Program-made: the position numbers and the translations under genes
The notes under the pieces: generated by a model
Told to the model about the DNA's origin: nothing
Databases searched by the model: none
Seen by the model: only the letters and a program-made list of their open reading frames with translations
Part shown: piece by piece, positions 1 through 11,600 of the stretch
Layout of the letters: each line of letters begins with the position of its first letter
How positions within the stretch are numbered: the first letter of the stretch is position 1
Source: a virus
Lineage: Duplodnaviria; Heunggongvirae; Uroviricota; Caudoviricetes
Strand: one strand, 5' to 3'
Virus record (IMG/VR): IMGVR_UViG_2778261569_000001
Location: 1 to 11,600 of that record
Length of the DNA: 11,600 nt

Positions 1-138
1 TGCAAATACCTTCCAACGAAACGCTCCAGAAATAAACGCAAGCCAATCCCAAAAGAATCTGACGTAAAAACCTTCAACTACACGGCTCACCTGTGGGATA
101 TCCGGTGGCTAAGACATCGTGCGAGGAATACAAGGTGA
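1..138 (+). CDS. NinE-like protein, C-terminal fragment (5' end lies outside the window)
   Basis: Frame 1 is open from base 1 to TGA at 136-138, translating ...[45 protein letters not shown]. This resembles my recollection of the lambda NinE C-terminus. Its stop overlaps the NinF start. Recall-based, not search-verified. Confidence 0.45.
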
Positions 139-305
139 TTGACCCAAATCGAAGTTACGAACAAGAAAGCGTCGAGCGAGCTTTAACGTGCGCTAACTGC
201 GGTCAGAAGCTGCATGTGCTGGAAGTTCACGTGTGCTCCGATTGCTGCGCAGAACTGATGAGCGATCCGAATAGCTCAATGTACGAGGAAGAAGACGATG
301 AGTGA
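135..305 (+). CDS. ninF: NinF-like small Cys-rich protein
   Basis: The track ORF 93..305 has no ATG. I place the start at GTG 135, preceded by GAGGA at 124-128, giving about 56 aa ([56 protein letters not shown]). This closely matches recalled lambda NinF (57 aa) and has a CxxC...CxxCC motif. Confidence 0.65.
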
Positions 306-516
306 TTCGTTTAGTAGCTCTGATTATTTGTATTTGGTTTTAGTACCTGTGGCAGAAGTATTCCGCTCTCGATTTCCTGAAGGCTCAGCACCATTTAATG
401 CCATTAGCACTTACTCAAAATGCAGAGTGAAATTTACAGGTAAGAGGCTGGAAAGAGAGTGGCAGCAATTCTGCAAAAAACATGACCTAAAAAATGACCC
501 TGAACTGGAGTATTAA
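298..516 (+). CDS. hypothetical small nin-region protein (72 aa)
   Basis: ATG at 298 overlaps the NinF stop (ATGA), and the TAA at 514-516 directly abuts the next ATG at 517. Tight packing in the operon suggests a real gene. I recognise no family. Confidence 0.45.
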   Translation: MSDSFSSSDYLYLVLVPVAEVFRSRFPEGSAPFNAISTYSKCRVKFTGKRLEREWQQFCKKHDLKNDPELEY

Positions 517-807
517 ATGGCTAATCTACGCAAAGAAGCGCGCGGCAGAGAATGCCAGGTACGTATTTACGGCATATGCAATGGCAATCCTGAAACTACA
601 GTTCTGGCACATTACCGGATGGCTGGAATTTGCGGAACGGGAATGAAGCCTGACGACCTGATCGGCGCATGGGCTTGTAGCGCGTGTCACGATGAAATCG
701 ACCGACGCACCCATAACCTCGACAACAAAGACACCAGACTTTACCACCTCGAAGGCGTTATCAGGACGCAGGCGATACTGCTGAAGGAGGGGAAGATTAA
801 GTCATGA
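517..807 (+). CDS. DUF1364 family protein (YbcO-like putative nuclease)
   Basis: 96 aa; N-terminus MANLRKEARGRECQVRIYGICNGNPETTVLAHYR with conserved Cys/His (CSACHDEID) resembles YbcO/DUF1364 proteins of lambdoid nin regions. Its stop overlaps the rusA start. Confidence 0.65.
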   Translation: MANLRKEARGRECQVRIYGICNGNPETTVLAHYRMAGICGTGMKPDDLIGAWACSACHDEIDRRTHNLDNKDTRLYHLEGVIRTQAILLKEGKIKS

Positions 808-1166
808 ACGAATATCAGTTTGTGCTTCCATACCCGCCGTCGCTGAACACCTACTGGCGAAGACGGGGAAGCCAATACTACATCAGCGATAAAGGCCAGA
901 AATACCGAAAAGACGTTCAGCAAATCATCCGCCAACTTAAGTTAGACATTTTCACCAAATCACGACTCCGCATCAAAGTCATCGCAGACGTTCCAGACTC
1001 CCGCCGCCGCGACCTCGACAACATCCTGAAAGGTTTACTCGACTCCCTTATCCACGCCGGATTTGCGGAAGACGACGAGCAATTCGATGACATTCGCGTA
1101 ATTCGTGGTGTGAAAGTACCAGGCGGACGGCTTGGAATAAAAATCACCGAACTGGAGAACGTATGA
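804..1166 (+). CDS. rusA: RusA Holliday junction resolvase (crossover junction endodeoxyribonuclease)
   Basis: 120 aa; motifs LPYPPSLNTYW, PDSRRRDLDNILKGLLDSL and DDEQ..D...I match the RusA family (DLP12/phage 82 type). ATG 804 overlaps the upstream stop (ATGA). Confidence 0.85.
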   Translation: MNEYQFVLPYPPSLNTYWRRRGSQYYISDKGQKYRKDVQQIIRQLKLDIFTKSRLRIKVIADVPDSRRRDLDNILKGLLDSLIHAGFAEDDEQFDDIRVIRGVKVPGGRLGIKITELENV

Positions 1167-1351
1167 ACGCCACAATTCAAACGATACCAGAGCTTCTTAT
1201 ACAGACACGAGGCAATCAGACCGAAGTGGCGAGGATGCTTTCCTGCGCAAGAGGAACGGTGCTCAAGTACAACCGAGACAGCAAAGGCGAACGTCACGTA
1301 ATAGTTAACGGCGTCCTGATGGTCAAACAGGGCAAGAGAGGAAGACGATGA
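1163..1351 (+). CDS. ninH: NinH-like protein
   Basis: 62 aa; IPELLIQTRGNQTEVARMLSCARGTVLKYNRDSKGERHVIVNGVLMV matches the recalled lambda NinH pattern (YGNQTEVARRL...RGTV.KY...HAIVNDVLMV). Overlapping start/stop codons with both neighbours. Confidence 0.75.
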   Translation: MNATIQTIPELLIQTRGNQTEVARMLSCARGTVLKYNRDSKGERHVIVNGVLMVKQGKRGRR

Positions 1352-1971
1352 GACTCGAAAGCGTAGCTAAATTTCATTCGCCAAAAAGCCCGATGATGAG
1401 CGACTCACCACGGGCTACGGCTTCTGACTCTCTTTCCGGTACTGATGTGATGGCTGCTATGGGGATGGCGCAATCACAAGCCGGATTCGGAATGGCTGCA
1501 TTCTGTGGTAAGCACGAACTCAGCCAGAATGACAAACAAAAGGCTATCAACTATCTGATGCAATTTGCACACAAGGTATCGGGGAAATACCGTGGTGTGG
1601 CAAAGCTTGAAGGAAATACTAAGGCAAAGGTACTGCAAGTGCTCGCAACATTCGCTTATGCGGATTATTGCCGTAGTGCCGCGACGCCGGGCGCAAGATG
1701 CAGAGATTGCCACGGTACAGGCCGTGCGGTTGATATATCAAAAACAGAGCTGTGGGGGAGAGTTGTCGAGAAAGAGTGCGGAAGATGCAAAGGCGTCGGC
1801 TATTCAAGGATGCCAGCAAGCGCAGCATATCGCGCTGTGACGATGCTAATCCCAAACCTTACCCAACCCACCTGGTCACGCACTGTTAAGCCGCTGTATG
1901 ACGCTCTGGTGGTGCAATGCCACAAAGAAGAGTCAATCGCAGACAACATTTTGAATGCGGTCACACGTTAG
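1348..1971 (+). CDS. Q: Late gene antiterminator Q (lambda type)
   Basis: 207 aa, the same length as lambda Q, and the translation appears near-identical to recalled lambda Q, including the Cys cluster CRDCHGTGR...CGRCKG (zinc finger). Followed by a pR'-like promoter. Confidence 0.9.
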   Translation: MRLESVAKFHSPKSPMMSDSPRATASDSLSGTDVMAAMGMAQSQAGFGMAAFCGKHELSQNDKQKAINYLMQFAHKVSGKYRGVAKLEGNTKAKVLQVLATFAYADYCRSAATPGARCRDCHGTGRAVDISKTELWGRVVEKECGRCKGVGYSRMPASAAYRAVTMLIPNLTQPTWSRTVKPLYDALVVQCHKEESIADNILNAVTR

Positions 1972-2013
1972 CAGCATGATTGCCACGGATGGCAACAAAT
2001 TAACGGCATAATA

Positions 2014-2055
2014 TTGACTTTTTGAATAAAGTTGGGTAAATTTGACATCAACGAT
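2014..2055 (+). promoter_or_regulatory. Late promoter pR' with qut element and promoter-proximal pause signal
   Basis: TTGACT at 2014-2019, 17-bp spacer, TAAATT at 2037-2042; AACGAT at 2050-2055 corresponds to the -10-like pause-inducing element of lambda pR'. The region is near-identical to recalled lambda pR'/qut. Confidence 0.7.
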
Positions 2056-2078
2056 GGATAAATGCACTCGTTAAATAA

Positions 2079-2114
2079 AGCCCTGAGTTAATAGCTCGGG
2101 GCTTTTTGCGTTTT
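2079..2114 (+). terminator. Intrinsic terminator (tR'-like) ending a short pR' leader RNA
   Basis: Stem AGCCCTGAG (2079-2087) pairs with CTCGGGGCT (2095-2103) over 9 bp with one G-U, 7-nt loop, then TTTT-GCG-TTTT. It lies about 30-60 nt downstream of the predicted pR' start. Confidence 0.7.
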
Positions 2115-2250
2115 AATCACGACCTTTCTGAAAGCACATCAAACCAAATACCAGACAGACAAAAATAATCACCTTATCCGCTGTGGCTACGGTGCGGTGT
2201 GCTTTGCATAAAAGAAAACCAGCGCAATGGCTGGCTTCGTGAAAGCGGGT

Positions 2251-2286
2251 GGCAAGAGGTTGCGCTAACAACCTCCTGCCGTTTTG
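2251..2286 (+). terminator. Terminator-like hairpin between tR' and S
   Basis: GGCAAGAGGTT (2251-2261) pairs with AACCTCCTGCC (2270-2280): 11-bp stem with one mismatch, 8-nt loop, followed by GTTTTG. Function uncertain (second terminator or RNA structure). Confidence 0.35.
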
Positions 2287-2385
2287 CCCGTGCATATCGG
2301 TCACGAACAAATCTGATTACTAAACACAGTAGCCTGGATTTGTTCTATCAGTAATCGACCTTATTCCTAATTAAATAGAGCAAAT

Positions 2386-2399
2386 CCCCTTATTGGGGG
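2386..2399 (+). promoter_or_regulatory. sdi-like stem-loop occluding the S Shine-Dalgarno
   Basis: CCCCT-TATT-GGGGG hairpin immediately upstream of the dual-start ATG-AAG-ATG of S, as in the lambda sdi structure that sets the S107/S105 ratio. Confidence 0.5.
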
Positions 2400-2405
2400 T
2401 AAGAC

Positions 2406-2729
2406 ATGAAGATGCCAGAAAAACATGACCTGTTAGCCGCCATTCTCGCGGCAAAGGAACAAGGCATCGGGGCAATCCTTGCGTTTGCAATGGCGTACCT
2501 TCGCGGCAGATATAATGGCGGTGCGTTTACAAAAACAGTAATCGACGCAACGATGTGTGCCATTATCGCCTGGTTCATTCGTGACCTTCTCGACTTCGCC
2601 GGACTAAGTAGCAATCTCGCTTATATAACGAGCGTGTTCATTGGCTACATCGGTACTGACTCGATTGGTTCGCTTATCAAACGCTTCGCTGCTAAAAAAG
2701 CCGGAGTAGAAGATGGTGGAAATCAATAA
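2406..2729 (+). CDS. S: Holin S (class I; S107 antiholin from Met1, S105 holin from Met3 at 2412)
   Basis: 107 aa [34 protein letters not shown]... essentially the lambda S sequence; dual-start motif Met-Lys-Met; predicted transmembrane segments. Confidence 0.9.
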
Positions 2730-3189
2730 TCAACGTAAGGCGTTCCTCGATATGCTGGCGTGGTCAGAGGGGACTGATAACGGACGTCAGAAAACCAGAA
2801 ATCATGGTTATGACGTCATTGTAGGCGGAGAGCTATTCACTGATTACTCAGATCACCCTCGCAAACTTGTCACGCTAAACCCCAAACTCAAATCAACAGC
2901 TGCAGGCCGTTACCAGCTTCTTTCCCGTTGGTGGGATGCCTATCGTAAGCAGCTTGGCCTGAAAGATTTCTCTCCGAAAAGCCAGGACGCTGTGGCATTG
3001 CAACAGATTAAAGAGCGTGGCGCTTTGCCGATGATTGATCGCGGTGATATCCGTCAGGCAATCGACCGTTGCAGCAATATCTGGGCTTCATTGCCGGGAG
3101 CTGGTTATGGTCAGTTCGAGCATAAGGCTGACAGTCTGATTTCAAAATTCAAAGAAGCAGGCGGAACGGTCAGAGAGATTGAGGTATGA
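2713..3189 (+). CDS. R: Endolysin R (lytic transglycosylase)
   Basis: 158 aa [24 protein letters not shown]... matches lambda R, including the catalytic Glu in WSEGT. Start overlaps the S 3' end; GGAG at 2703-2706. Confidence 0.9.
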
Positions 3190-3623
3190 GCAGAGTCACC
3201 GCGATTATCTCCGCTCTGGTTATCTGCATCATCGTCTGCCTGTCATGGGCTGTTAATCATTACCGTGATAACGCCATGACCTACAAAGAGCAGCGCGATA
3301 AAGCCATATCCATCATCGCTGATATGCAGAAGCGTCAACGTGATGTAGCAGAACTTGACGCCAGATACACAAAGGAGCTTGCTGATGCTAACGCGACTAT
3401 CGAAAGTCTCCGTGCTGATGTTTCTGCTGGTCGTAAGCGCCTGCAAGTCGCCGCCACCTGTGCAAAGTCAACGACCGGAGCCAGCAGCATGGGCGATGGA
3501 GAAAGCCCAAGACTTACAGCAGATGCTGAACTCAATTATTACCGTCTCCGAAGTGGAATCGACAGGATAACCGCGCAGGTTAACTACCTGCAGGAATACA
3601 TCAGGACGCAATGCCTTCGATGA
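3186..3623 (+). CDS. Rz: Rz i-spanin
   Basis: 145 aa; the N-terminal TM anchor [30 protein letters not shown] matches lambda Rz, followed by a coiled-coil-like periplasmic domain whose C-terminal half diverges from lambda. ATGA overlap with the R stop. Confidence 0.8.
3385..3570 (+). CDS. Rz1: Rz1 o-spanin (outer-membrane lipoprotein) embedded in Rz in the +1 frame
   Basis: ATG 3385 preceded by AAAGGAG at 3371-3377. 61 aa [27 protein letters not shown]... with signal peptide, lipobox LVVSAC and a Pro-rich segment. It lies entirely inside Rz. The track ORF 3355..3570 is the same frame with an earlier start. Confidence 0.7.
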
Positions 3624-3797
3624 TAGCGATAATTTTACTCATCATCCTTCACATCTAGCTCTGTAGACAGGGTGATGATCACTTCTGGAGTGAATCCAGA
3701 TTAAACATCTCATTGCTGATGCTTGATATTGAGCATCTGGCGCGCGGTAAGGGGCTGCGTTGAGATAAGAGCCAGTCATTACAAATACCAGGATTTA

Positions 3798-3821
3798 GCC
3801 TCGCATTTGCGGGGCTTTTTT
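3798..3821 (+). terminator. Intrinsic terminator downstream of Rz
   Basis: GCCTCGC (3798-3804), loop ATTT, GCGGGGC (3809-3815): 7-bp GC-rich stem with one G-U, followed by TTTTTT (3816-3821). Confidence 0.6.
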
Positions 3822-3969
3822 ACATCTGCAGTAAACCGCGCATCGCAGCGCGTAACAATCCCGAGTCTTTCAGAAAGCTGAGCCTGAGAATTGCCGTATA
3901 TGGTGGCGACCATCTCGGGGACGGCTTTTCTGTGCGAACAGGCTCATCTTTCTAAAAGGTAAAGACGCA

Positions 3970-4512
3970 ATGAACTACCCAACCGTTGTTAACGATATAG
4001 ATTTCAGAGACCTAATTTTTGTAGCAAACAACGATCCGGTTACAGATTCTTTTATGGTGGCAAAAGCATTTGGAAAGCTGCCGAAGAACGTGGTTCGTGA
4101 CATTGAACGAACCATAGAAGCTTGCCCTCCTGAGTTTGATACAAAGCTCAACTTTGAGCTTTGCTATAAAAACAATGAGTTACAGAATGGTAAGCCGCAA
4201 AAATTCTACCGTCTCCGCAAGGATGGGTTGATGCTTTTGGTTATGTCCTACACCAAAAAAGAAGCAATGCGTATCAAAATTGCTTACATCAACGCATTCA
4301 ACTGGATGTACGCCATGCTTCAGGTTGGTCATCGTCAATTTGAAGAAGAGAGAAATGCCGTAATGCTGGAGTACATGAAAGAGAAGGATGTTGCCAGCAT
4401 GTCAGGCCGCCTGCTTAATCGCTGGGGAAAAATTAAGAAGCCTCAGCTACTGGCGAGAATTGAACGCCTTGAACAGCACGGGCAAACCGTAATCCCCGGA
4501 CTCACCAATTAA
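3970..4512 (+). CDS. rha: Rha family phage regulatory protein
   Basis: 180 aa; the N-terminal domain matches the Phage_pRha pattern (..VAKAFGK...NVVRDIER......EF...NFE......G.....YRLRKDG.MLLVMSYTKKEA...K.AYINAFN.M). It occupies the position of P22 orf201/rha between the lysis genes and terminase. Confidence 0.7.
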   Translation: MNYPTVVNDIDFRDLIFVANNDPVTDSFMVAKAFGKLPKNVVRDIERTIEACPPEFDTKLNFELCYKNNELQNGKPQKFYRLRKDGLMLLVMSYTKKEAMRIKIAYINAFNWMYAMLQVGHRQFEEERNAVMLEYMKEKDVASMSGRLLNRWGKIKKPQLLARIERLEQHGQTVIPGLTN

Positions 4513-4739
4513 CGGCAGTACAGCGAAACAACCCAAGCCAGTAAGTGGGGAAATAACACTGGCAGCCACTGAAAGATGAACCTCCAGCCTTATGGCAAAA
4601 AAGATTCTTTGTGGTGGCGGACTGATGGAAAGACATCGGTTATTGCAGAGGCCATTCAATGAGTGGTCTCGACAATGGCTTATACCCTACACGGGATAAC
4701 TTAACTGATATCCCTTTTAACGGATAAACGGAGCCAACA

Positions 4740-4982
4740 ATGGCAGAGATTATTCCCATGACTGAAGAACAGAAATTCCAGTTAGAGATTTACAAACTGG
4801 TCATGAACCAGAACGCAGCCGCAGAAGAAGCATTTCAGTTCATTGGCACTGACGAGCTGAAGCTTGAGTTATTCAAAATTCACTTCCAGTCAGGCGGCGC
4901 TAATTCGGATATCACGACCCGCACTATCGAAGCGGTGCGTAAATCGAAGGAAGCTTTAGACCTGTTCACCACCGGAGCATAA
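4740..4982 (+). CDS. hypothetical protein (80 aa)
   Basis: ATG ORF of 80 aa with no recognisable domain. Its position and length resemble P22 orf80 upstream of the small terminase gene. GGAG-like sequence upstream. Confidence 0.5.
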   Translation: MAEIIPMTEEQKFQLEIYKLVMNQNAAAEEAFQFIGTDELKLELFKIHFQSGGANSDITTRTIEAVRKSKEALDLFTTGA

Positions 4983-4984
4983 AC

Positions 4985-5056
4985 ATGGCAACTCAAGGTT
5001 TCGACAACCCATCCAAATTCCGCGATGAATGGGATAAGCAAGCAGAAGGGAAATAA
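4985..5056 (+). CDS. possible micro-ORF (23 aa, MATQGFDNPSKFRDEWDKQAEGK)
   Basis: ATG at 4985 lies 10 nt after GGAG (4972-4975) and fills the gap between the 80-aa ORF stop and the small terminase start. Too short to support by composition alone. Confidence 0.15.
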   Translation: MATQGFDNPSKFRDEWDKQAEGK

Positions 5057-5061
5057 TCAAT

Positions 5062-5487
5062 ATGGCGACTGAGAAAAAGAATGTCGGTCGCCCTTCGGAT
5101 TACCTGCCGGAGGTGGCTGATGATATCTGTGCGCTGCTTGCCTCCGGGGAAAGTCTGGTTAAGGTTTGCAAGCGCCCCGGCATGCCAGCAAAGGCTACTG
5201 TATTTCGCTGGCTGTCAGAGCATGAAGAATTTAGAGACAAGTACGCGAAGGCAACTGAGGCACGAGCTGATTCTATTTTCGAAGAGATATTCGAAATTGC
5301 TGACACTGCGATTCCAGATGCTGCTGAGGTGGCAAAGGCAAGACTTCGCGTTGATACCCGCAAATGGGCGCTGGCCAGAATGAATCCCCGTAAGTATGGC
5401 GACAAGGTAACTAATGAGCTTGTCGGCAAAGACGGCGGCGCAATCCAGATTGAAACATCACCGATGAGCACTCTGTTCGGAAAATGA
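5062..5487 (+). CDS. Terminase small subunit (Sf6 gp1-like)
   Basis: 141 aa; GRPSDYLPEVADDICALLASGESLVKVCKRPGMPAKATVFRWLSEHEEFRDKYAKA is the characteristic HTH DNA-recognition N-terminus of Sf6/P22-like small terminases. Its stop overlaps the large subunit start. Confidence 0.8.
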   Translation: MATEKKNVGRPSDYLPEVADDICALLASGESLVKVCKRPGMPAKATVFRWLSEHEEFRDKYAKATEARADSIFEEIFEIADTAIPDAAEVAKARLRVDTRKWALARMNPRKYGDKVTNELVGKDGGAIQIETSPMSTLFGK

Positions 5488-6899
5488 CCTCGATTAATCC
5501 TATCTTTGAACCGTTCATTGAGGCGCATCGCTACAAAGTCGCCAAAGGCGGTCGAGGTAGCGGTAAGTCATGGGCAATTGCTAGGCTGCTTGTTGAAGCG
5601 GCGCGTCGTCAGCCAGTGCGTATTCTCTGCGCTCGTGAACTGCAAAACAGTATCAGCGATTCGGTAATCCGGTTGCTTGAAGATACCATCGAGCGTGAAG
5701 GGTATTCGGCCGAGTTTGAAATTCAGCGTTCAATGATTCGTCATCTCGGAACGAATGCTGAATTCATGTTCTACGGCATAAAAAACAACCCGACTAAGAT
5801 TAAATCGCTCGAAGGCATTGATATCTGCTGGGTGGAAGAAGCGGAAGCGGTAACGAAGGAATCATGGGATATCCTGATACCGACCATCCGTAAGCCGTTC
5901 TCTGAAATATGGGTGAGCTTTAACCCGAAAAACATCCTCGACGATACCTATCAGCGATTCGTTGTAAATCCTCCCGATGATATTTGCCTGCTGACGGTGA
6001 ACTACACCGACAACCCGCACTTTCCTGAAGTTCTCCGTCTGGAGATGGAAGAGTGCAAACGCAGAAATCCGACACTGTATCGTCACATCTGGCTTGGTGA
6101 GCCAGTGAGCGCAAGTGATATGGCAATCATCAAACGTGAATGGCTTGAAGCCGCAACCGATGCGCACAAGAAACTCGGATGGAAGGCGAAAGGCGCTGTT
6201 GTCTCTGCGCATGACCCGTCAGATACAGGACCGGATGCTAAAGGTTATGCATCGCGTCACGGTTCGGTGGTTAAGCGCATTGCCGAAGGTCTGCTGATGG
6301 ACATCAACGAGGGTGCTGACTGGGCTACTTCGCTGGCGATTGAAGACGGCGCTGATCATTACCTGTGGGATGGCGATGGTGTCGGTGCAGGGCTACGCAG
6401 ACAGACAACGGAAGCGTTCTCCGGCAAGAAAATCACCGCCACGATGTTCAAGGGCAGCGAATCGCCATTCGATGAAGACGCGCCGTATCAGGCCGGAGCA
6501 TGGGCTGATGAAGTCGTACAGGGTGACAACGTTCGCACTATTGGCGATGTTTTCCGCAATAAGCGAGCGCAATTCTATTACGCACTGGCTGATAGGCTGT
6601 ATCTGACATATCGGGCGGTTGTTCACGGTGAGTATGCAGACCCCGACGACATGCTGAGTTTCGACAAAGAAGCGATAGGCGAGAAGATGCTGGAGAAGCT
6701 GTTTGCAGAACTGACGCAGATTCAGCGCAAATTCAATAACAACGGGAAGCTTGAGCTAATGACTAAGGTCGAAATGAAGCAGAAGCTCGGTATTCCATCT
6801 CCTAACCTGGCTGATGCGCTGATGATGTGTATGCATTGCCCGGAGTCGGCTGCGCAACCCGACTATTCCAGTTACTCAATTCCTTGTGGTGTAGGTTGA
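5484..6899 (+). CDS. Terminase large subunit (ATPase/nuclease)
   Basis: 471 aa; Walker A VAKGGRGSGKSWA near the N-terminus and a Walker B-like ICWVEEAEA; C-terminal nuclease domain. The length matches Sf6-type large terminases. Confidence 0.9.
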   Translation: MTSINPIFEPFIEAHRYKVAKGGRGSGKSWAIARLLVEAARRQPVRILCARELQNSISDSVIRLLEDTIEREGYSAEFEIQRSMIRHLGTNAEFMFYGIKNNPTKIKSLEGIDICWVEEAEAVTKESWDILIPTIRKPFSEIWVSFNPKNILDDTYQRFVVNPPDDICLLTVNYTDNPHFPEVLRLEMEECKRRNPTLYRHIWLGEPVSASDMAIIKREWLEAATDAHKKLGWKAKGAVVSAHDPSDTGPDAKGYASRHGSVVKRIAEGLLMDINEGADWATSLAIEDGADHYLWDGDGVGAGLRRQTTEAFSGKKITATMFKGSESPFDEDAPYQAGAWADEVVQGDNVRTIGDVFRNKRAQFYYALADRLYLTYRAVVHGEYADPDDMLSFDKEAIGEKMLEKLFAELTQIQRKFNNNGKLELMTKVEMKQKLGIPSPNLADALMMCMHCPESAAQPDYSSYSIPCGVG

Positions 6900-6900
6900 T

Positions 6901-9099
6901 ATGGCAGAAAAAAAGATGACTGACTGGCATCGCAAGGTGCTGTGCAACTTTGATAATGCCTGGTCAGCAACGCAGGATATGCGTGAGCAGATTATTGAGG
7001 CTCAACGTTTCGTCCGGGTATCCGGCGCACAGTGGGAAGGCAGCACAAACGCTGGTTACTCATTTGATGAAGGCAGGTTTGAGCATTACCCGCGCTTTGA
7101 ACTGAATAAGATTGCCCGTGAATGTGATCGCATCATTGGCGAGTATCGACAGAATCGCATCAGCGTTAAATTCAGGCCGAAGGACGATAAGGCATCGGAA
7201 GCGTTAGCCGAAAAGATGAATGGTAAATTCCGCGCTGACTATCAGGAAACATCCGGTGGTGAAGCGTGTGATAACGCATTTGATGATGCTGTAACGGGCG
7301 GATTCGGTTGTTTCCGCATGTGTGCCGATTACGAAGATGAAATGGATCCGAGTAACGAGCAACGCCGTATAAGCCTTCTCCCTGTTTACGACCCAGCGAC
7401 ATGCGTCTTCTTCGATCAGGACAGCAAGCAATATGACCGCTCTGATGCTATGTGGGCTATGGAAATGTTCTCCATGACGCCTAAAGCGTTCGAAGCTGAA
7501 TACCCTGATTCCATCGCGGCAAGCCTTTCTCGTGATGACACTGGTACTCAGTATGACTGGTCAACGCCCGATGCCATCTATGTTGGACGCTACTACGAAG
7601 TTCGCATAGAGAAGGTGAAGCTCACAGCATGGCGTAACCCTGTTAGCGGAGAAACGGCAATCTATGATGAAGATCAAATCAAAGATATTGTCGACGAGCT
7701 GACCGATGGCGCATTCGAACTGATTGGTGAGCGGACAGTGAAGAAACGCCGAGTTTATTGCGGTCTTCTGTCTGGCGCTGAATGGCTGGAAGAACCGAAG
7801 CGTATTCCGGGCGAACATATTCCTCTCATCCCGGTATATGGGCGTCGCTCATTTGTTGATAATCAGGAGCGAATCGAAGGTCACGCAGCAAAAGCGATGG
7901 ATGCACAGCGTCTTGAGAACCTGATGGTTTCCATGATTGCAGATAACGCTACTCAGGCTGGCGGTGATGGCATTCCTGTAGTTGATGTTGACATGATTCC
8001 TGGTCCTCTCGCCACTCATTGGGCGGAGCGCAACAAAAAGCGCCCGGCGTTCCTGCCGATGGTCAGTCTGAAAAACAAAAACGGAGATATTACTGCGCAG
8101 GCTCAGGTCAGCAGTTATACACCTCCGACACAAATGCCTCCTGCTCTTGCCGGGCTATTGCAGTACACCGGAACGGCTATTCAGCAAATTACAGGTGCGT
8201 CGCAGCTTGAGAACATGCCGAGCAACGTCGCCACCGATACCGTTGATAGCATCTTTAACCGGATGGACACGCAGTCCTATATCTACATGGACAATATGGC
8301 TAAATCCATGCGCCGCGCTGGCGTCGTGTGGCTTTCTATGGCTCGTGAAGTCTATGGCAGTGATACGCCGATGCGTATCGTTAATGAGGACGGCAGCGAT
8401 GACGTGGCGCTGATGACTGGTGAAGTGGTTGACCGTCAGACAGGGCAGGTTATCGCGCTTAACGACCTTTCGCAGGGTAACTATGAAGTGACTGTCGATG
8501 TCGGTCAGTCGTTCGCTACTCGCCGTGACGCAACGGTTAAGTCGTTACTTTCCATGCTGGCACTTATCCCACCAGGAACGCCGAAGCACGACCTTGTATC
8601 GTCGATGATTCTCGACAATATGGACGGCGAAGGGATGGACGACCTTAAAGAATACAACCGCAATCAGTTGCTTCTGTCTGGAGTTATCAAGCCGAGAACG
8701 CCAGAAGAGCAGCAAATGGTTGAGCAGGCGAAACAACAACAGGCCAGTCAGCCAGATCCGGCTATGGTTGCTGCGCAAGGTCAGCTTCTTGCTGGTCAGG
8801 CTGAATTGCAGAAAGCGCAGAACGAACAGGCATCCATTCAGGTTAAAGCATTCCAGGCACAGACTGATGCTCAGGTTGCAGCGGCAAATGTTGTGAAAAT
8901 CCTCGCATCTGCCGATAGCCAGCAGAAATCTGATATCCGCGAGGCTCTGAAACTGCTAGGACAGTTCCAGCAACAGCAAGGAGACAATGCCCGTGCTGAT
9001 GCAGAGCTTGTCCTGAAAAGTCAGGCACAGGGCCATGCGCAGCGCATGGACATCAGCAGTATCCTGCAAAAACCAACTCAGCAACAACCACAGCAGTAA
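6901..9099 (+). CDS. Portal protein (P22/Sf6-like) with long C-terminal helical barrel
   Basis: 732 aa; conserved segments RRVY...GEHIPLIPVYG and C-terminal TPEEQQ..E.A...Q..DPAMV.AQG.LL.GQAEL.KAQN ... ARA.AEL.LK......QRMDI..ILQ resemble P22 gp1. ATG one base after the terminase stop. Confidence 0.9.
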   Translation: MAEKKMTDWHRKVLCNFDNAWSATQDMREQIIEAQRFVRVSGAQWEGSTNAGYSFDEGRFEHYPRFELNKIARECDRIIGEYRQNRISVKFRPKDDKASEALAEKMNGKFRADYQETSGGEACDNAFDDAVTGGFGCFRMCADYEDEMDPSNEQRRISLLPVYDPATCVFFDQDSKQYDRSDAMWAMEMFSMTPKAFEAEYPDSIAASLSRDDTGTQYDWSTPDAIYVGRYYEVRIEKVKLTAWRNPVSGETAIYDEDQIKDIVDELTDGAFELIGERTVKKRRVYCGLLSGAEWLEEPKRIPGEHIPLIPVYGRRSFVDNQERIEGHAAKAMDAQRLENLMVSMIADNATQAGGDGIPVVDVDMIPGPLATHWAERNKKRPAFLPMVSLKNKNGDITAQAQVSSYTPPTQMPPALAGLLQYTGTAIQQITGASQLENMPSNVATDTVDSIFNRMDTQSYIYMDNMAKSMRRAGVVWLSMAREVYGSDTPMRIVNEDGSDDVALMTGEVVDRQTGQVIALNDLSQGNYEVTVDVGQSFATRRDATVKSLLSMLALIPPGTPKHDLVSSMILDNMDGEGMDDLKEYNRNQLLLSGVIKPRTPEEQQMVEQAKQQQASQPDPAMVAAQGQLLAGQAELQKAQNEQASIQVKAFQAQTDAQVAAANVVKILASADSQQKSDIREALKLLGQFQQQQGDNARADAELVLKSQAQGHAQRMDISSILQKPTQQQPQQ

Positions 9100-9189
9100 T
9101 TAACCCATAACGTGCAATGGCTGTCTTTATGAGGCCTGGCACCCTATTGCCTTCCGATGGGCTGAACATCGAGTAAACAGGGGTAACAA

Positions 9190-10110
9190 ATGGACCAGAT
9201 GGCAGAAAACACACCAGAAGTTGAAATCGAAACCGACGCGTCAGAGCAGATTCCTGATGATGTCGAACTGGCTGAAGAAGTCGAAACAGAAGATGGCAGT
9301 GAGTCCTCCGGCAATGATGCAGAGGAAGCTACTGAAACTGATGACGACGAATCAGAACAGGAATTCTACTTTGGTGACGAAAAGCTGGATTCGCCAACCA
9401 GCGAAGATGGCGCAGAGCATGGACTGGTAAAACACCTGCGCAAGACGATTAAAGAGAAAGACCGCGAGCTGAAAGAGCTGATGCGTCAGTCTCAGAAACC
9501 CGTCGAGCAGCAGCCGGTAATCACTCAACCACCGCGAATGCCAAAACTGGATGATGAGGACATCGGTTTCGATGAAGAAATCTACCAGCAACGCATGGCT
9601 AAGTGGGCAGAGGATAACGGCAAGTACCAGCAACAGGAGATGGCTCGCAAGCAGAAGGAGCAGGAGCTTCAGGCTGCCTATCAAGAGCGATTATCCAAAT
9701 ATCAGCAACGTGTTAAGGCTCTCAAAGTTCCTGGCTATCAGGAAGCAGAACAGGCCGTACTCGAGGAAATCCCCATCGAGACACAAAACGCGATCCTGTT
9801 TGAGTCAGAGAAGCCGGAAATCGTTGTTCTGGCACTCGGTCGCAACGCTGAACTGCGCAAGCAACTGGCAGAAGCTACCAACCCCGTAGCAATTGGTCGT
9901 CTGCTGGAACGTATCGAATCGAAGGCCAGAATCATGCCAAAAGCAAAAACCACGGCAGCCACAACCCCGACAGTTAAGGGGAGCAACGGCGCAGTAATCA
10001 ACAACCTCGGCAAATTGAAAGCCAAGGCGCTGGAAACTGGTGACTGGACGCCGTATTTCGCCGCTAAAAAGGCAAAAAAAATAACCTATCGGAGCATTAA
10101 GCATGGCTAA
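9190..10110 (+). CDS. Scaffolding protein (P22 gp8-like)
   Basis: 306 aa; highly acidic N-terminus, central coiled-coil-like region rich in Q/E/K/R, basic C-terminal helix-turn-helix-like tail (KAKALETGDWTPYFAAKKAKK). Sits between portal and coat as in P22-like phages. Stop overlaps the coat start. Confidence 0.7.
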   Translation: MDQMAENTPEVEIETDASEQIPDDVELAEEVETEDGSESSGNDAEEATETDDDESEQEFYFGDEKLDSPTSEDGAEHGLVKHLRKTIKEKDRELKELMRQSQKPVEQQPVITQPPRMPKLDDEDIGFDEEIYQQRMAKWAEDNGKYQQQEMARKQKEQELQAAYQERLSKYQQRVKALKVPGYQEAEQAVLEEIPIETQNAILFESEKPEIVVLALGRNAELRKQLAEATNPVAIGRLLERIESKARIMPKAKTTAATTPTVKGSNGAVINNLGKLKAKALETGDWTPYFAAKKAKKITYRSIKHG

Positions 10111-11229
10111 CCAATTAGCAAAAGACCTTGAAATCATGTTCGAAAACTACGTTGAAGGCTTTGAGGCCGCCTGCGTAGTTTCCCGTAACGCTAAAAAATT
10201 CCGTCCCGGTGATACAGCAATGCAGCGAGCAGGTGATGTTCTGTATCGTCCGCAGCATTACCACATGAATATTGAGGAAGGCCTAGACCTCAGCGGCAAA
10301 ACGCCAACAGCACTGGTTCAGCGCCTTGTTCCTTCTGTGTTCAAGGAGCCGAAAAACATTCTGTACACTCTGGATGCGCGTGAAATGCGTGACCCGGAAC
10401 ATAAAACTGAAGCTGGTCGAGCCGCAGGTATGCGCCTTGCTGCACAGATTGACTCTGACCTGATTTCCATGGTCACGCAGCGTGCTACTAACGTGATCAC
10501 GATGGCTGACTCAACCACAGGTTCACAGGGCCGTGATTTGTGGAACTGTGCGGCAGGTATTGATGCCACCATGACGGCGATTGGTGTACCGCAGGGTATC
10601 AACCGTCGCTCTTTCTGGAACCCCTTCAACTACAAAGACCTTGCTGGCGAGCTTGGTCACCGTGCCTACGCTCAGGGCGCAACCCTGACAGCATACGAAA
10701 AAGCGCAGATCCCTCCGGTTGCTTCCTTTGATAGCTACAAGACCGATATTTCTGGTCGATTACCGAAAGGAAGCGCTGAATCCTTGACAGTATCAGGCCA
10801 ACCTGAACACAAGGTTGAAGCGAAAGATTCAAATGGTATGCCAGTTGATAACCGACAGGGGACTATTACGGTATCTGCATCTGGCTTGCAGGTTGGTGAT
10901 GCGTTCACCATTGCCGGTGTGAATTCCGTACACCAGATCACAAAAGATACCACCGGGCAACCGCAGGTATTCCGTGTTCTGGCTGTTAGCGGAACTACCG
11001 TAACAATCTCTCCAAAGATTCTCCCTGTTGAAAATACCGATGTTGCGAGTCGTCCATATGCAAACGTCGATGCCAAACCGGCAGCATCAGCAGCAATCAC
11101 CATTCTCAACAAGAACGCAGCACCTGCTAACCTGTTCTGGGCTGATGGTTCTGTTGAGCTGATGTACGGCAAACTGGCGTTCCCGACTGGTCAGGGTCCA
11201 CAGGTAATGACAGCAACCACCGAGCAGGG
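10103..11229 (+). pseudogene. Major coat protein gene (P22/Sf6 gp5-like), 3' end displaced by IS insertion
   Basis: Reading frame from ATG 10103; the C-terminal region contains NLFWADGSVEL, resembling the P22 coat motif NVFWADDAIRI. The frame runs into IS sequence at about 11230 and stops at 11278 after 15-16 IS-encoded residues. About 45 C-terminal residues are missing compared with P22-like coats of roughly 420-430 aa. Confidence 0.75.
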
Positions 11230-11600
11230 TGAACCGCCCCGGAAATCCTGGAGACTAAACTCCCTGAGAAAGAGGTAAACAGGATGACTAAAAATACTCG
11301 TTTTTCCCCCGAAGTCCGTCAGCGGGCGATTCGTATGGTTCTGGAAAGTCAGGATGAATATGACTCACAGTGGGCGGCAATTTGTTCCATTGCCCCAAAG
11401 ATTGGCTGTACGCCGGAGACTCTGCGTGTCTGGGTTCGCCAGCATGAGCGGGATACCGGGGGCGGTGATGGTGGGCTCACCAGCGCTGAACGTCAGCGTC
11501 TGAAAGAGCTGGAACGTGAAAATCGTGAACTGCGCCGCAGTAACGATATCCTTCGCCAGGCTTCCGCTTATTTTGCGAAGGCGGAGTTCGACCGCCTCTG
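11230..11600 (+). mobile_element. IS3-family insertion sequence (IS629/IS1203-like), left end; continues past window edge
   Basis: Terminal sequence TGAACCGCCCCGG... beginning at 11230 (typical IS3-family TG end), followed by an RBS and the OrfA start at 11284. The coat-gene homology breaks exactly here. Confidence 0.8.
11284..11600 (+). CDS. IS3-family transposase OrfA (partial, 3' end outside window)
   Basis: [60 protein letters not shown]...[41 protein letters not shown]: HTH plus leucine-zipper OrfA typical of IS629-like elements. RBS AGAGG at about 11271. Confidence 0.85.

Follow-up and report, generated by a model that had tools for sequence, protein, structure and literature searches.

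P22-like phages belong to the lambdoid group, within which they are mosaically related; their nin and early regions are highly mosaic, and some of them carry a late antiterminator Q that is 99% identical to lambda Q (PMC2629481). P22, Sf6, and CUS-3 each stand for one of three groups of coat protein among P22-like phages (PMC12502783). A lambda-like Q and lysis region beside a P22-like head is the standard, long-published layout of Lederbergvirus in Escherichia coli. Considered here is a stretch of 11,600 nucleotides (nt) held as IMG/VR virus record IMGVR_UViG_2778261569_000001 (positions 1-11600; the window). It very probably belongs to a defective P22-like (Lederbergvirus) prophage with a CUS-3-type head, from the O111 lineage of Shiga-toxin-producing E. 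coli (STEC), and takes in the right portion of the early-right operon as well as the first half of its late operon. An earlier note, made from the sequence letters, had described a lambda-type Q and lysis module joined to a P22/Sf6-type packaging and head module; the mosaicism is real, but it is not a local join, and what the window holds is ordinary, previously described lambdoid mosaicism with nothing new in kind.

Relatives of the window

Draft contig NJZZ01000066.1 of assembly GCA_002462085.1 (11,600 nt; identified by exact-protein look-up) is the window in its entirety, and contig FAWR01000178.1 of a second, independent assembly is an exact substring of it that spans 1539-11278. It was compared with a collection of 50,697 phage records and with 5,426 complete E. 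coli genomes by megablast, which reaches down to roughly 85% identity; protein by protein (tblastn) with lambda, P22, Sf6, HK620, CUS-3, Kapi1, and two O111 prophages; and along its length by a 40-nt identity profile. Gene families were called by Pfam and PHROG profile searches. BLAST E-values are close to 0 for all homology matches, and chance is not in question; identities given for proteins are amino acid identities.

Matches somewhere in the window were found for 646 of the 50,697 phage records, five of which cover at least 80% of it. Kapi1 (84% coverage, 96.8% identity) and CUS-3 (83%, 97.6%), both Lederbergvirus, come closest; no phage record covers more than 84%, and the uniform similarity to a single known phage that would argue against a mosaic was not seen. 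Integrated relatives are closer: at least 80% of the window is present in 178 of the 5,426 complete E. coli genomes, those of serotype O111:H8 matching best (96% coverage, 99.3% identity), and two finished O111:H8 chromosomes jointly cover 1-11229 at 99.5% identity or higher.

CUS-3 (CP000711; Lederbergvirus, from E. coli K1 strain RS218) matches the window without a break over 2235-4989 and 5399-11229, and its S, R, Rz, Rha, DUF2560, TerL, portal, scaffold, and coat proteins are 96-100% identical to those of the window. It differs in having another Q allele (172 amino acids, unmatched), another Q-S region, the gene roi in the place of a small nin-region gene called orf72 here, and another N-terminal part of the small terminase subunit TerS (4990-5398 unmatched); its coat and scaffold genes are intact. 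HK620 (NC_002730) and Kapi1 (MT813197) share the layout of the window, its lambda-type Q (99%), S, and R (99-100% for the three proteins), the block of YbcO-like, RusA, and NinH genes, and the large terminase subunit TerL. Both differ in the Rz allele (54-55%) and in having KilA-N or other genes where the window has Rha; HK620 also differs in its Sf6-type portal, scaffold, and coat, and Kapi1 in two tRNA genes between Q and S, of which the window has none.

Two phages outside this group resemble only the left part of the window. The siphovirus HK97 (NC_002167) gives an unbroken match at 96.4% nucleotide identity over 516-3616, from the YbcO-like gene through Rz and including the short late leader; it also matches 4502-4821 at 97% and shares an extra A after the -10 hexamer of the late promoter. 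Its head/tail module is wholly different, with cos packaging, and similarity ends at 4821. Lambda (NC_001416) shares Q, S, and R, NinE and NinF (91-93%), and a late promoter region that can be aligned up to 2072. It differs in NinG and NinI, in its long 6S leader with a tR' of its own, and in Rz/Rz1 after about 3280, and has no similarity beyond 3434; nucleotide identity to lambda is 95% over 1-300, 97.3% over 1341-2072, and 92.7% over 2235-3434, and is found nowhere else in the window. The left half is closer to the HK97 block than to lambda, and in nature it is attached to quite different head modules.

Of the two finished O111:H8 prophages, that of strain 2009C-3675 (CP077531) matches 1-4637 with three differences, and between about 5850 and 11229 its only departures from the window are at 6107 and 10074; it differs by extra genes (one of the Gp49 family and two small open reading frames) and by another allele of TerS and the 5' part of TerL, in 4639-5850. 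The prophage of strain 7-16 37A (CP077519) matches 1-3614 with three differences and 4282-11229 with 33, 31 of them clustered in 4284-4416; it differs by another Rha allele in 3615-4281. Neither has an insertion sequence (IS) in the coat gene or the run of eight A residues found in the scaffold gene of the window, and both genomes carry, elsewhere, IS1203 copies 100% identical to the IS end of the window.

Breakpoints and the age of the joints

Along the window, similarity to any one reference phage comes and goes. Against the panel, homology starts or stops at 300-305, 516, 1341-1352, 2072-2107, 2181-2235, about 3280, and about 3600, and further on at 3785-3820, 3974, 4503, 4637/4639, 4821, 4980-4989, 5056-5062, about 5240, and about 6840; the sharpest breaks are those near 3280 (in Rz), 5240 (in TerS), and 6840 (at the 3' end of TerL). 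Boundary sequences are conserved stretches at module borders that permit homologous recombination between otherwise different phages. Sequences annotated as such by depositors lie at two of the breakpoints, bsq3 of CUS-3 corresponding to 2165-2405 of the window and bsq7 of Sf6 to about 3255-3302. Related phages and prophages would have built up the patchwork by recombining with one another, often at conserved linker sequences.

The intervals 3190-3970 and 4513-5061 had been proposed in the earlier note as candidate recombination boundaries. The first does hold breaks at about 3280, about 3600, 3785-3820, and 3974, most of them softer, and the second holds or borders softer breaks at 4503, 4637/4639, 4821, 4980-4989, and 5056-5062; the sharp breaks at 5240 and 6840 and those around Q were missed. 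A recent local recombination that joined a lambda Q/lysis region to a P22/Sf6 head in these two intervals would agree with the end of lambda similarity at 3434, with the end of HK97 similarity at 3616 and, after a gap, at 4821, and with the beginning of Sf6, HK620, and Kapi1 similarity in the packaging genes at 5056-5062. The same joints, however, occur in HK620, Sf6, CUS-3, and Kapi1, CUS-3 running unbroken through 2235-4989, and the join is therefore shared and old rather than local. The DUF2560 protein, encoded immediately ahead of the terminase, shows 99-100% identity to its counterparts in every P22-like reference (P22, Sf6, HK620, CUS-3, and Kapi1); P22 itself has a lambda-like Q and S (97% and 90%), which are thus not foreign to P22-like phages; and the head is of the CUS-3 type, neither Sf6-type nor P22-type. 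A recent local join is improbable, and most of the joints are old and common to published phages.

The window ends lie in repeated DNA, the start inside ninE and the end inside IS1203, and are breaks of a draft assembly, not biological boundaries. That the mosaic itself is an artefact of short-read assembly, stitching co-resident lambdoid prophages together at shared repeats, would be in keeping with a whole draft contig that has a repeat at either end and with the wealth of lambdoid prophages in STEC genomes (a median of four and up to 50 matching places per genome). Yet the finished chromosomes support all internal stretches with overlap (1-4637 and 4282-11229), and the second independent assembly agrees base for base over 1539-11278; an assembly artefact is highly improbable.

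Among the O111 strains the differences are few. The window and the two finished O111:H8 prophages are almost identical except in the patches 3615-4500 (Rha) and 4639-5850 (DUF2560, TerS, and the 5' part of TerL), and these two patches occur among O111 strains in at least three combinations, of which the window has one. A very recent exchange of cassettes between co-resident prophages in the O111 lineage, together with a TerS segment that sets a new packaging specificity, may be entertained as a tentative and rather unlikely reading.

Packaging and head module

The genes run in the P22-like order TerS-TerL-portal-scaffold-coat, with a portal and a coat of the P22 family. TerS is 91% identical to those of Sf6, HK620, and Kapi1, and its divergence is confined to one end: over the first 180 nt or so (about 5067-5240; 5080-5240 in the local profile) nucleotide identity to these three phages is 70-78%, and from 5240 it is 98-100%. 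The N-terminal segment is unmatched in CUS-3 and found no megablast match in the 50,697 phage records; TerS, this segment included, is 100% identical in O111:H8 strain 7-16 37A. The segment could specify a new recognition of the packaging site (pac).

TerL is 99-100% identical to those of Sf6, HK620, CUS-3, and Kapi1. Between about 5240 and about 6840 the nucleotide sequence is 93-100% identical to Sf6 and HK620; at that point, some 60 nt short of the TerL stop codon, the value drops sharply to about 60%, whereas CUS-3 and Kapi1 remain at 100% there; the switch near 6840 is the border between the terminase and portal modules and is shared with CUS-3. Beyond it, portal, scaffold, and coat are each 99% identical to their CUS-3 counterparts. 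Against Sf6 the portal is 56% and the scaffold 33% identical and the coat finds no match; against P22 the portal is 35% and the coat 32% identical and the scaffold finds no match. At the nucleotide level there is no match to Sf6 in scaffold or coat, and little or none to Sf6 or P22 across portal, scaffold, and coat. The head is thus of the CUS-3 subtype and not of the Sf6 subtype, only the terminase being Sf6-like; a CUS-3-type head module is joined to an Sf6-like terminase, exactly as in CUS-3. An assignment of everything from the terminases to the coat to P22/Sf6 had been made from the letters; it stands for the gene order and for the Sf6-like terminase, but not for the sequences of portal, scaffold, and coat, which are of the CUS-3 type.

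Within the coat gene, over 10650-11100, nucleotide identity to Kapi1 drops to 82-88% while that to CUS-3 is 97-100%, a small mosaic patch inside a structural gene.

IS1203 insertion and the state of the prophage

Phage homology ends exactly at 11229 because a copy of IS1203 interrupts the coat gene. From 11230 the sequence begins TGAACCGCCCC, and 11230-11600 agrees in 371 of 371 nt with sequences in O111 genomes that carry the annotation 'IS3-like element IS1203 family transposase'. The IS1203 orfA starts at 11284 (PF01527, E 2e-12), and the terminal sequence and orfA place the element in the IS1203/IS629 group of the IS3 family; the frameshift pseudoknot annotated in RefSeq copies of IS1203 would be cut by the end of the window. 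The coat frame loses the last 42 of its 417 codons, runs 16 codons into the IS, and stops at 11278; the coat gene of CUS-3 extends 127 nt past 11229. Because the coat gene loses these codons to IS1203, we infer that this copy of the prophage is defective and cannot build capsids.

The scaffold gene is altered as well. A slip from seven to eight A residues at 10067-10074 removes its stop codon and adds nine C-terminal residues (ITYRSIKHG), overlapping the coat start; the eight-A run is present in both draft assemblies and, as in the two finished O111:H8 genomes, is absent from CUS-3 and Kapi1. With the coat cut by IS1203 and the scaffold extended, the structural genes are not all complete and uninterrupted. 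An intact, inducible temperate phage, in which the sequence past 11229 would be a phage-borne cargo gene, could be proposed on the ground that the genes upstream of coat are all open, save the small homologue of Sf6 gene 65. This is extremely improbable: the coat frame loses codons and runs into the IS, the inserted DNA is the left end of an IS3-family element with its transposase orfA, and the scaffold carries a frameshift extension.

The coat-IS junction occurs in none of the 5,426 complete E. coli genomes (no unbroken megablast match), and the 35-mer across it has no exact match in contigs representing one genome per species. The junction 11229/11230 is identical in the two independent draft assemblies and is therefore reproducible. 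In O111:H- strain 11128 (NC_013364.1) the two halves of the junction lie about 180 nt apart, because the coat gene there is intact and IS1203 follows closely after it. IS1203 insertions into this prophage lineage have been repeated and independent.

Copies of IS1203 were also seen at other places in related prophages. The prophage of strain 11128 has two, both distinct from the insertion in the window: one interrupts the scaffold gene, and the other is the copy that follows the coat gene (positions 11197-12410 and 14388-15601 of the locus). In strains 110512, 2009C-3675, and 7-16 37A, IS1203 lies in the helicase gene, next to cro, and in the DNA-transfer gene.

Several points weigh against reading the window as part of a defective O111 prophage. 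The contig ends inside the IS; the remainder of the coat gene may follow, or else the DNA there may be deleted or rearranged. No host flank, integrase gene, or attachment (att) site lies within the window, so that the term prophage is drawn from the IS insertion and from the near-identical integrated copies in finished chromosomes. The assignment of the window itself to O111 is likewise a deduction from sequence likeness to those genomes, and is best taken as probable.

The nin region and Q

Upstream of the late genes the window holds the right end of a nin region. Between NinF and Q there is no homologue of NinG or NinI; the space between NinF and NinH is filled by orf72, a YbcO-like gene, and the RusA gene, as in HK97 and HK620 except that these have roi in the place of orf72. 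Lambda has ninG in that place. The replacement of NinG by RusA and a YbcO-like gene had been suspected from the letters and is borne out, with orf72 as a further part of it. The YbcO-like protein is 95-98% identical to those of HK620, CUS-3, and Kapi1, RusA is 98% identical to the rus products of HK620 and CUS-3, and NinH is 100% identical to those of HK620 and CUS-3 and 56% to that of lambda. orf72 has no Pfam match, and a megablast of 296-520 against the 50,697 phage records returned nothing; it is 100% identical in the O111 prophages.

Q is 100% identical to lambda Q, 99% to Q of HK620 and Kapi1, and 97% to gp23 of P22, and finds no match in CUS-3 or Sf6 by tblastn. With S at 99% and R at 98% protein identity, Q is one of three proteins described in the earlier note as nearly identical to those of lambda, and rightly so.

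The late control region

The late promoter pR' lies directly downstream of Q and consists of TTGACT, a 17-nt spacer, and TAAATT, with the Q-binding region between the hexamers and a pause-inducing AACGAT element in the early transcribed region. In a column-by-column alignment the promoter, the region between the hexamers, and the element AACGATGG are conserved in the window, lambda, P22, and HK620, and the matching regions of P22 and HK620 are annotated as pR'/qut. The terminator tR' is a 13-bp stem followed by a T run, with a folding energy of -23.3 kcal/mol (z -4.3; none of 200 shuffles folds as well), and aligns with the annotated tR' of P22 at 37917-37945. Beyond 2072 lambda continues into its long 6S leader, whereas the window, P22, and HK620 pass straight to the terminator of a short leader; the interval between Q and S (435 nt) is collinear with that of P22. 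A lambda-like pR' is thus a correct description of the promoter up to 2072 but not of what follows: Q and pR' are lambda-like, and the leader and tR' are of the P22/HK97 type, not of the lambda 6S type. A Q-family protein, pR', and tR' are all present, which places the region in the lambdoid Q-dependent late module.

By analogy with its homologues, the window would be expressed in two steps. Early-right transcription would pass through NinE, NinF, orf72, the YbcO-like nuclease, RusA, and NinH and then Q; Q would engage RNA polymerase at pR', giving read-through of tR' and one long late transcript that would carry S, R, Rz/Rz1, Rha, DUF2560, TerS, TerL, portal, scaffold, and coat.

At position 2047 there is one extra A between the -10 hexamer and AACGAT, relative to lambda, P22, and HK620. 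It was considered as a possible defect of pR' and rejected, the variant occurring naturally in viable phages: the same 21-mer with the extra A is present in 23 viral contigs, HK97-type phages included, and in three O111 prophages.

RefSeq O111 genomes label a minus-strand open reading frame at 2113-2310, between tR' and S, as a 'hypothetical protein'. Neither Pfam nor PHROG gives a match to it, it holds a minus-strand terminator-like hairpin (2238-2215), and it is probably not a gene.

A tRNA scan of the window found none, including the tRNA-Asn/tRNA-Thr pair that stands between Q and S in Kapi1, Sf6, and O111 strain 11128, and an Rfam scan of both strands gave nothing at the gathering score.

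The lysis cassette

The lysis genes have the lambda-type S-R-Rz/Rz1 architecture, with a class I holin, a dual start, and an embedded Rz1. S begins with MKM, the dual-start motif of lambda, and is 100% identical to S of Sf6 and CUS-3; R has no match to gp19 of P22. R overlaps S by 17 nt and Rz overlaps R by 4 nt, and Rz1 lies in the +1 frame of Rz, its position being set by collinearity with Rz1 of P22 (39187-39372).

The alleles are not lambda's in all four genes. Rz is 97% identical to that of Sf6, 90% to that of P22, and 59% to that of lambda, and Rz1 is 99%, 96%, and 41% identical to those of the same three phages. In the 40-nt profile every reference shows 90-100% identity as far as about 3280. 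Beyond this point the values drop to 55-80% for lambda, HK620, and Kapi1 but remain at 92-100% for Sf6, P22, and CUS-3, and near 3600 all come together again. The first 30 or so codons of Rz are common to all the references, and the remainder is the P22/Sf6/CUS-3 allele, so that the lambda-like Rz N-terminus of the earlier description is present, up to about 3280 only.

Genes between lysis and packaging

Overlapping the Rz stop codon is a homologue of Sf6 gene 65, which has an internal stop at codon 16 and is annotated as 'internal stop', a pseudogene, in the RefSeq version of the O111:H8 genome CP077531. The Rha-family protein that follows (180 amino acids) is 100% identical to that of CUS-3 and 56% to Rha of P22. 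CUS-3 annotates 612 nt for this gene, against 543 nt here; a truncation was considered for this reason and rejected, since only the choice of start codon differs, and the same 543-nt gene is called by RefSeq in CP077531.

Gene map

The substantial open reading frames all lie on the plus strand, in a single tightly packed series with partial overlaps (Table 1). All the genes named in the earlier note were recovered by the profile searches, at or near where it had put them.

Table 1. Features of the 11,600-nt window, with the evidence on which each call is based.
Feature	Position	Strand	Evidence
NinE, C-terminal 45 codons, cut by contig start	1-138	+	PF05322 call in source contig; 91-100% amino acid identity to lambda, P22, CUS-3, HK620
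NinF	135-305	+	PF05810, E 8e-14; 93% amino acid identity to lambda NinF
orf72, small nin-region gene, 72 amino acids	298-516	+	PHROG 3379 'endonuclease', full length, E 5e-50
YbcO-like putative nuclease (HkbD / HK97 gp66 homologue)	517-807	+	PF07102 YbcO, E 4e-44
RusA Holliday-junction resolvase	804-1166	+	PF05866, E 2e-16
NinH, HK97/HK620 allele	1163-1351	+	PF06322, E 2e-24
Late antiterminator Q, lambda allele	1348-1971	+	PF03589, E 1e-57
Late promoter pR'	2014-2042	+	Consensus scan; alignment with lambda, P22, HK620
tR', intrinsic terminator of short late leader, predicted target of Q antitermination	2077-2105	+	Hairpin and T run; aligns with P22 tR'
Holin/antiholin S	2406-2729	+	PF05106, E 2e-30
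Endolysin R, lambda-type	2713-3189	+	PHROG 90 endolysin, E 6e-64
Rz spanin	3186-3623	+	PF03245, E 3e-36
Rz1 lipoprotein spanin, inside Rz, +1 frame	3385-3570	+	PF06085, E 4e-20
Sf6 gene 65 homologue, pseudogene	3611-3763	+	Translation compared with Sf6 gene 65
Rha-family regulator, CUS-3 allele	3970-4512	+	PF09669 and PF10549; PHROG 518, E 2e-81
DUF2560 protein (HkbM / P22 orf80)	4740-4982	+	PF10834, E 1e-43
TerS, Sf6 family, divergent N-terminal segment	5062-5487	+	PF20901 Sf6_terminase, E 1e-44
TerL, headful type	5484-6899	+	PF04466, E 3e-41
Portal, CUS-3 type	6901-9099	+	PF16510, E 2e-170
Scaffold, CUS-3 type	9190-10110	+	PHROG 648, E 6e-119
Coat, CUS-3 type, cut after codon 375 of 417	10103-11229	+	PF11651, E 3e-72, profile positions 1-383 of 423
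IS1203 (IS3 family) left end, cut by contig end	11230-11600	+	371/371 nt identical to annotated copies

Significance

These results are of small importance outside correct annotation: the head should be labeled as CUS-3-type, the prophage flagged as defective, and the ends of the window treated as contig ends. The window illustrates, cleanly and on a small scale, both lambdoid mosaicism and the decay of a prophage through IS1203 in Shiga-toxin-producing E. coli.

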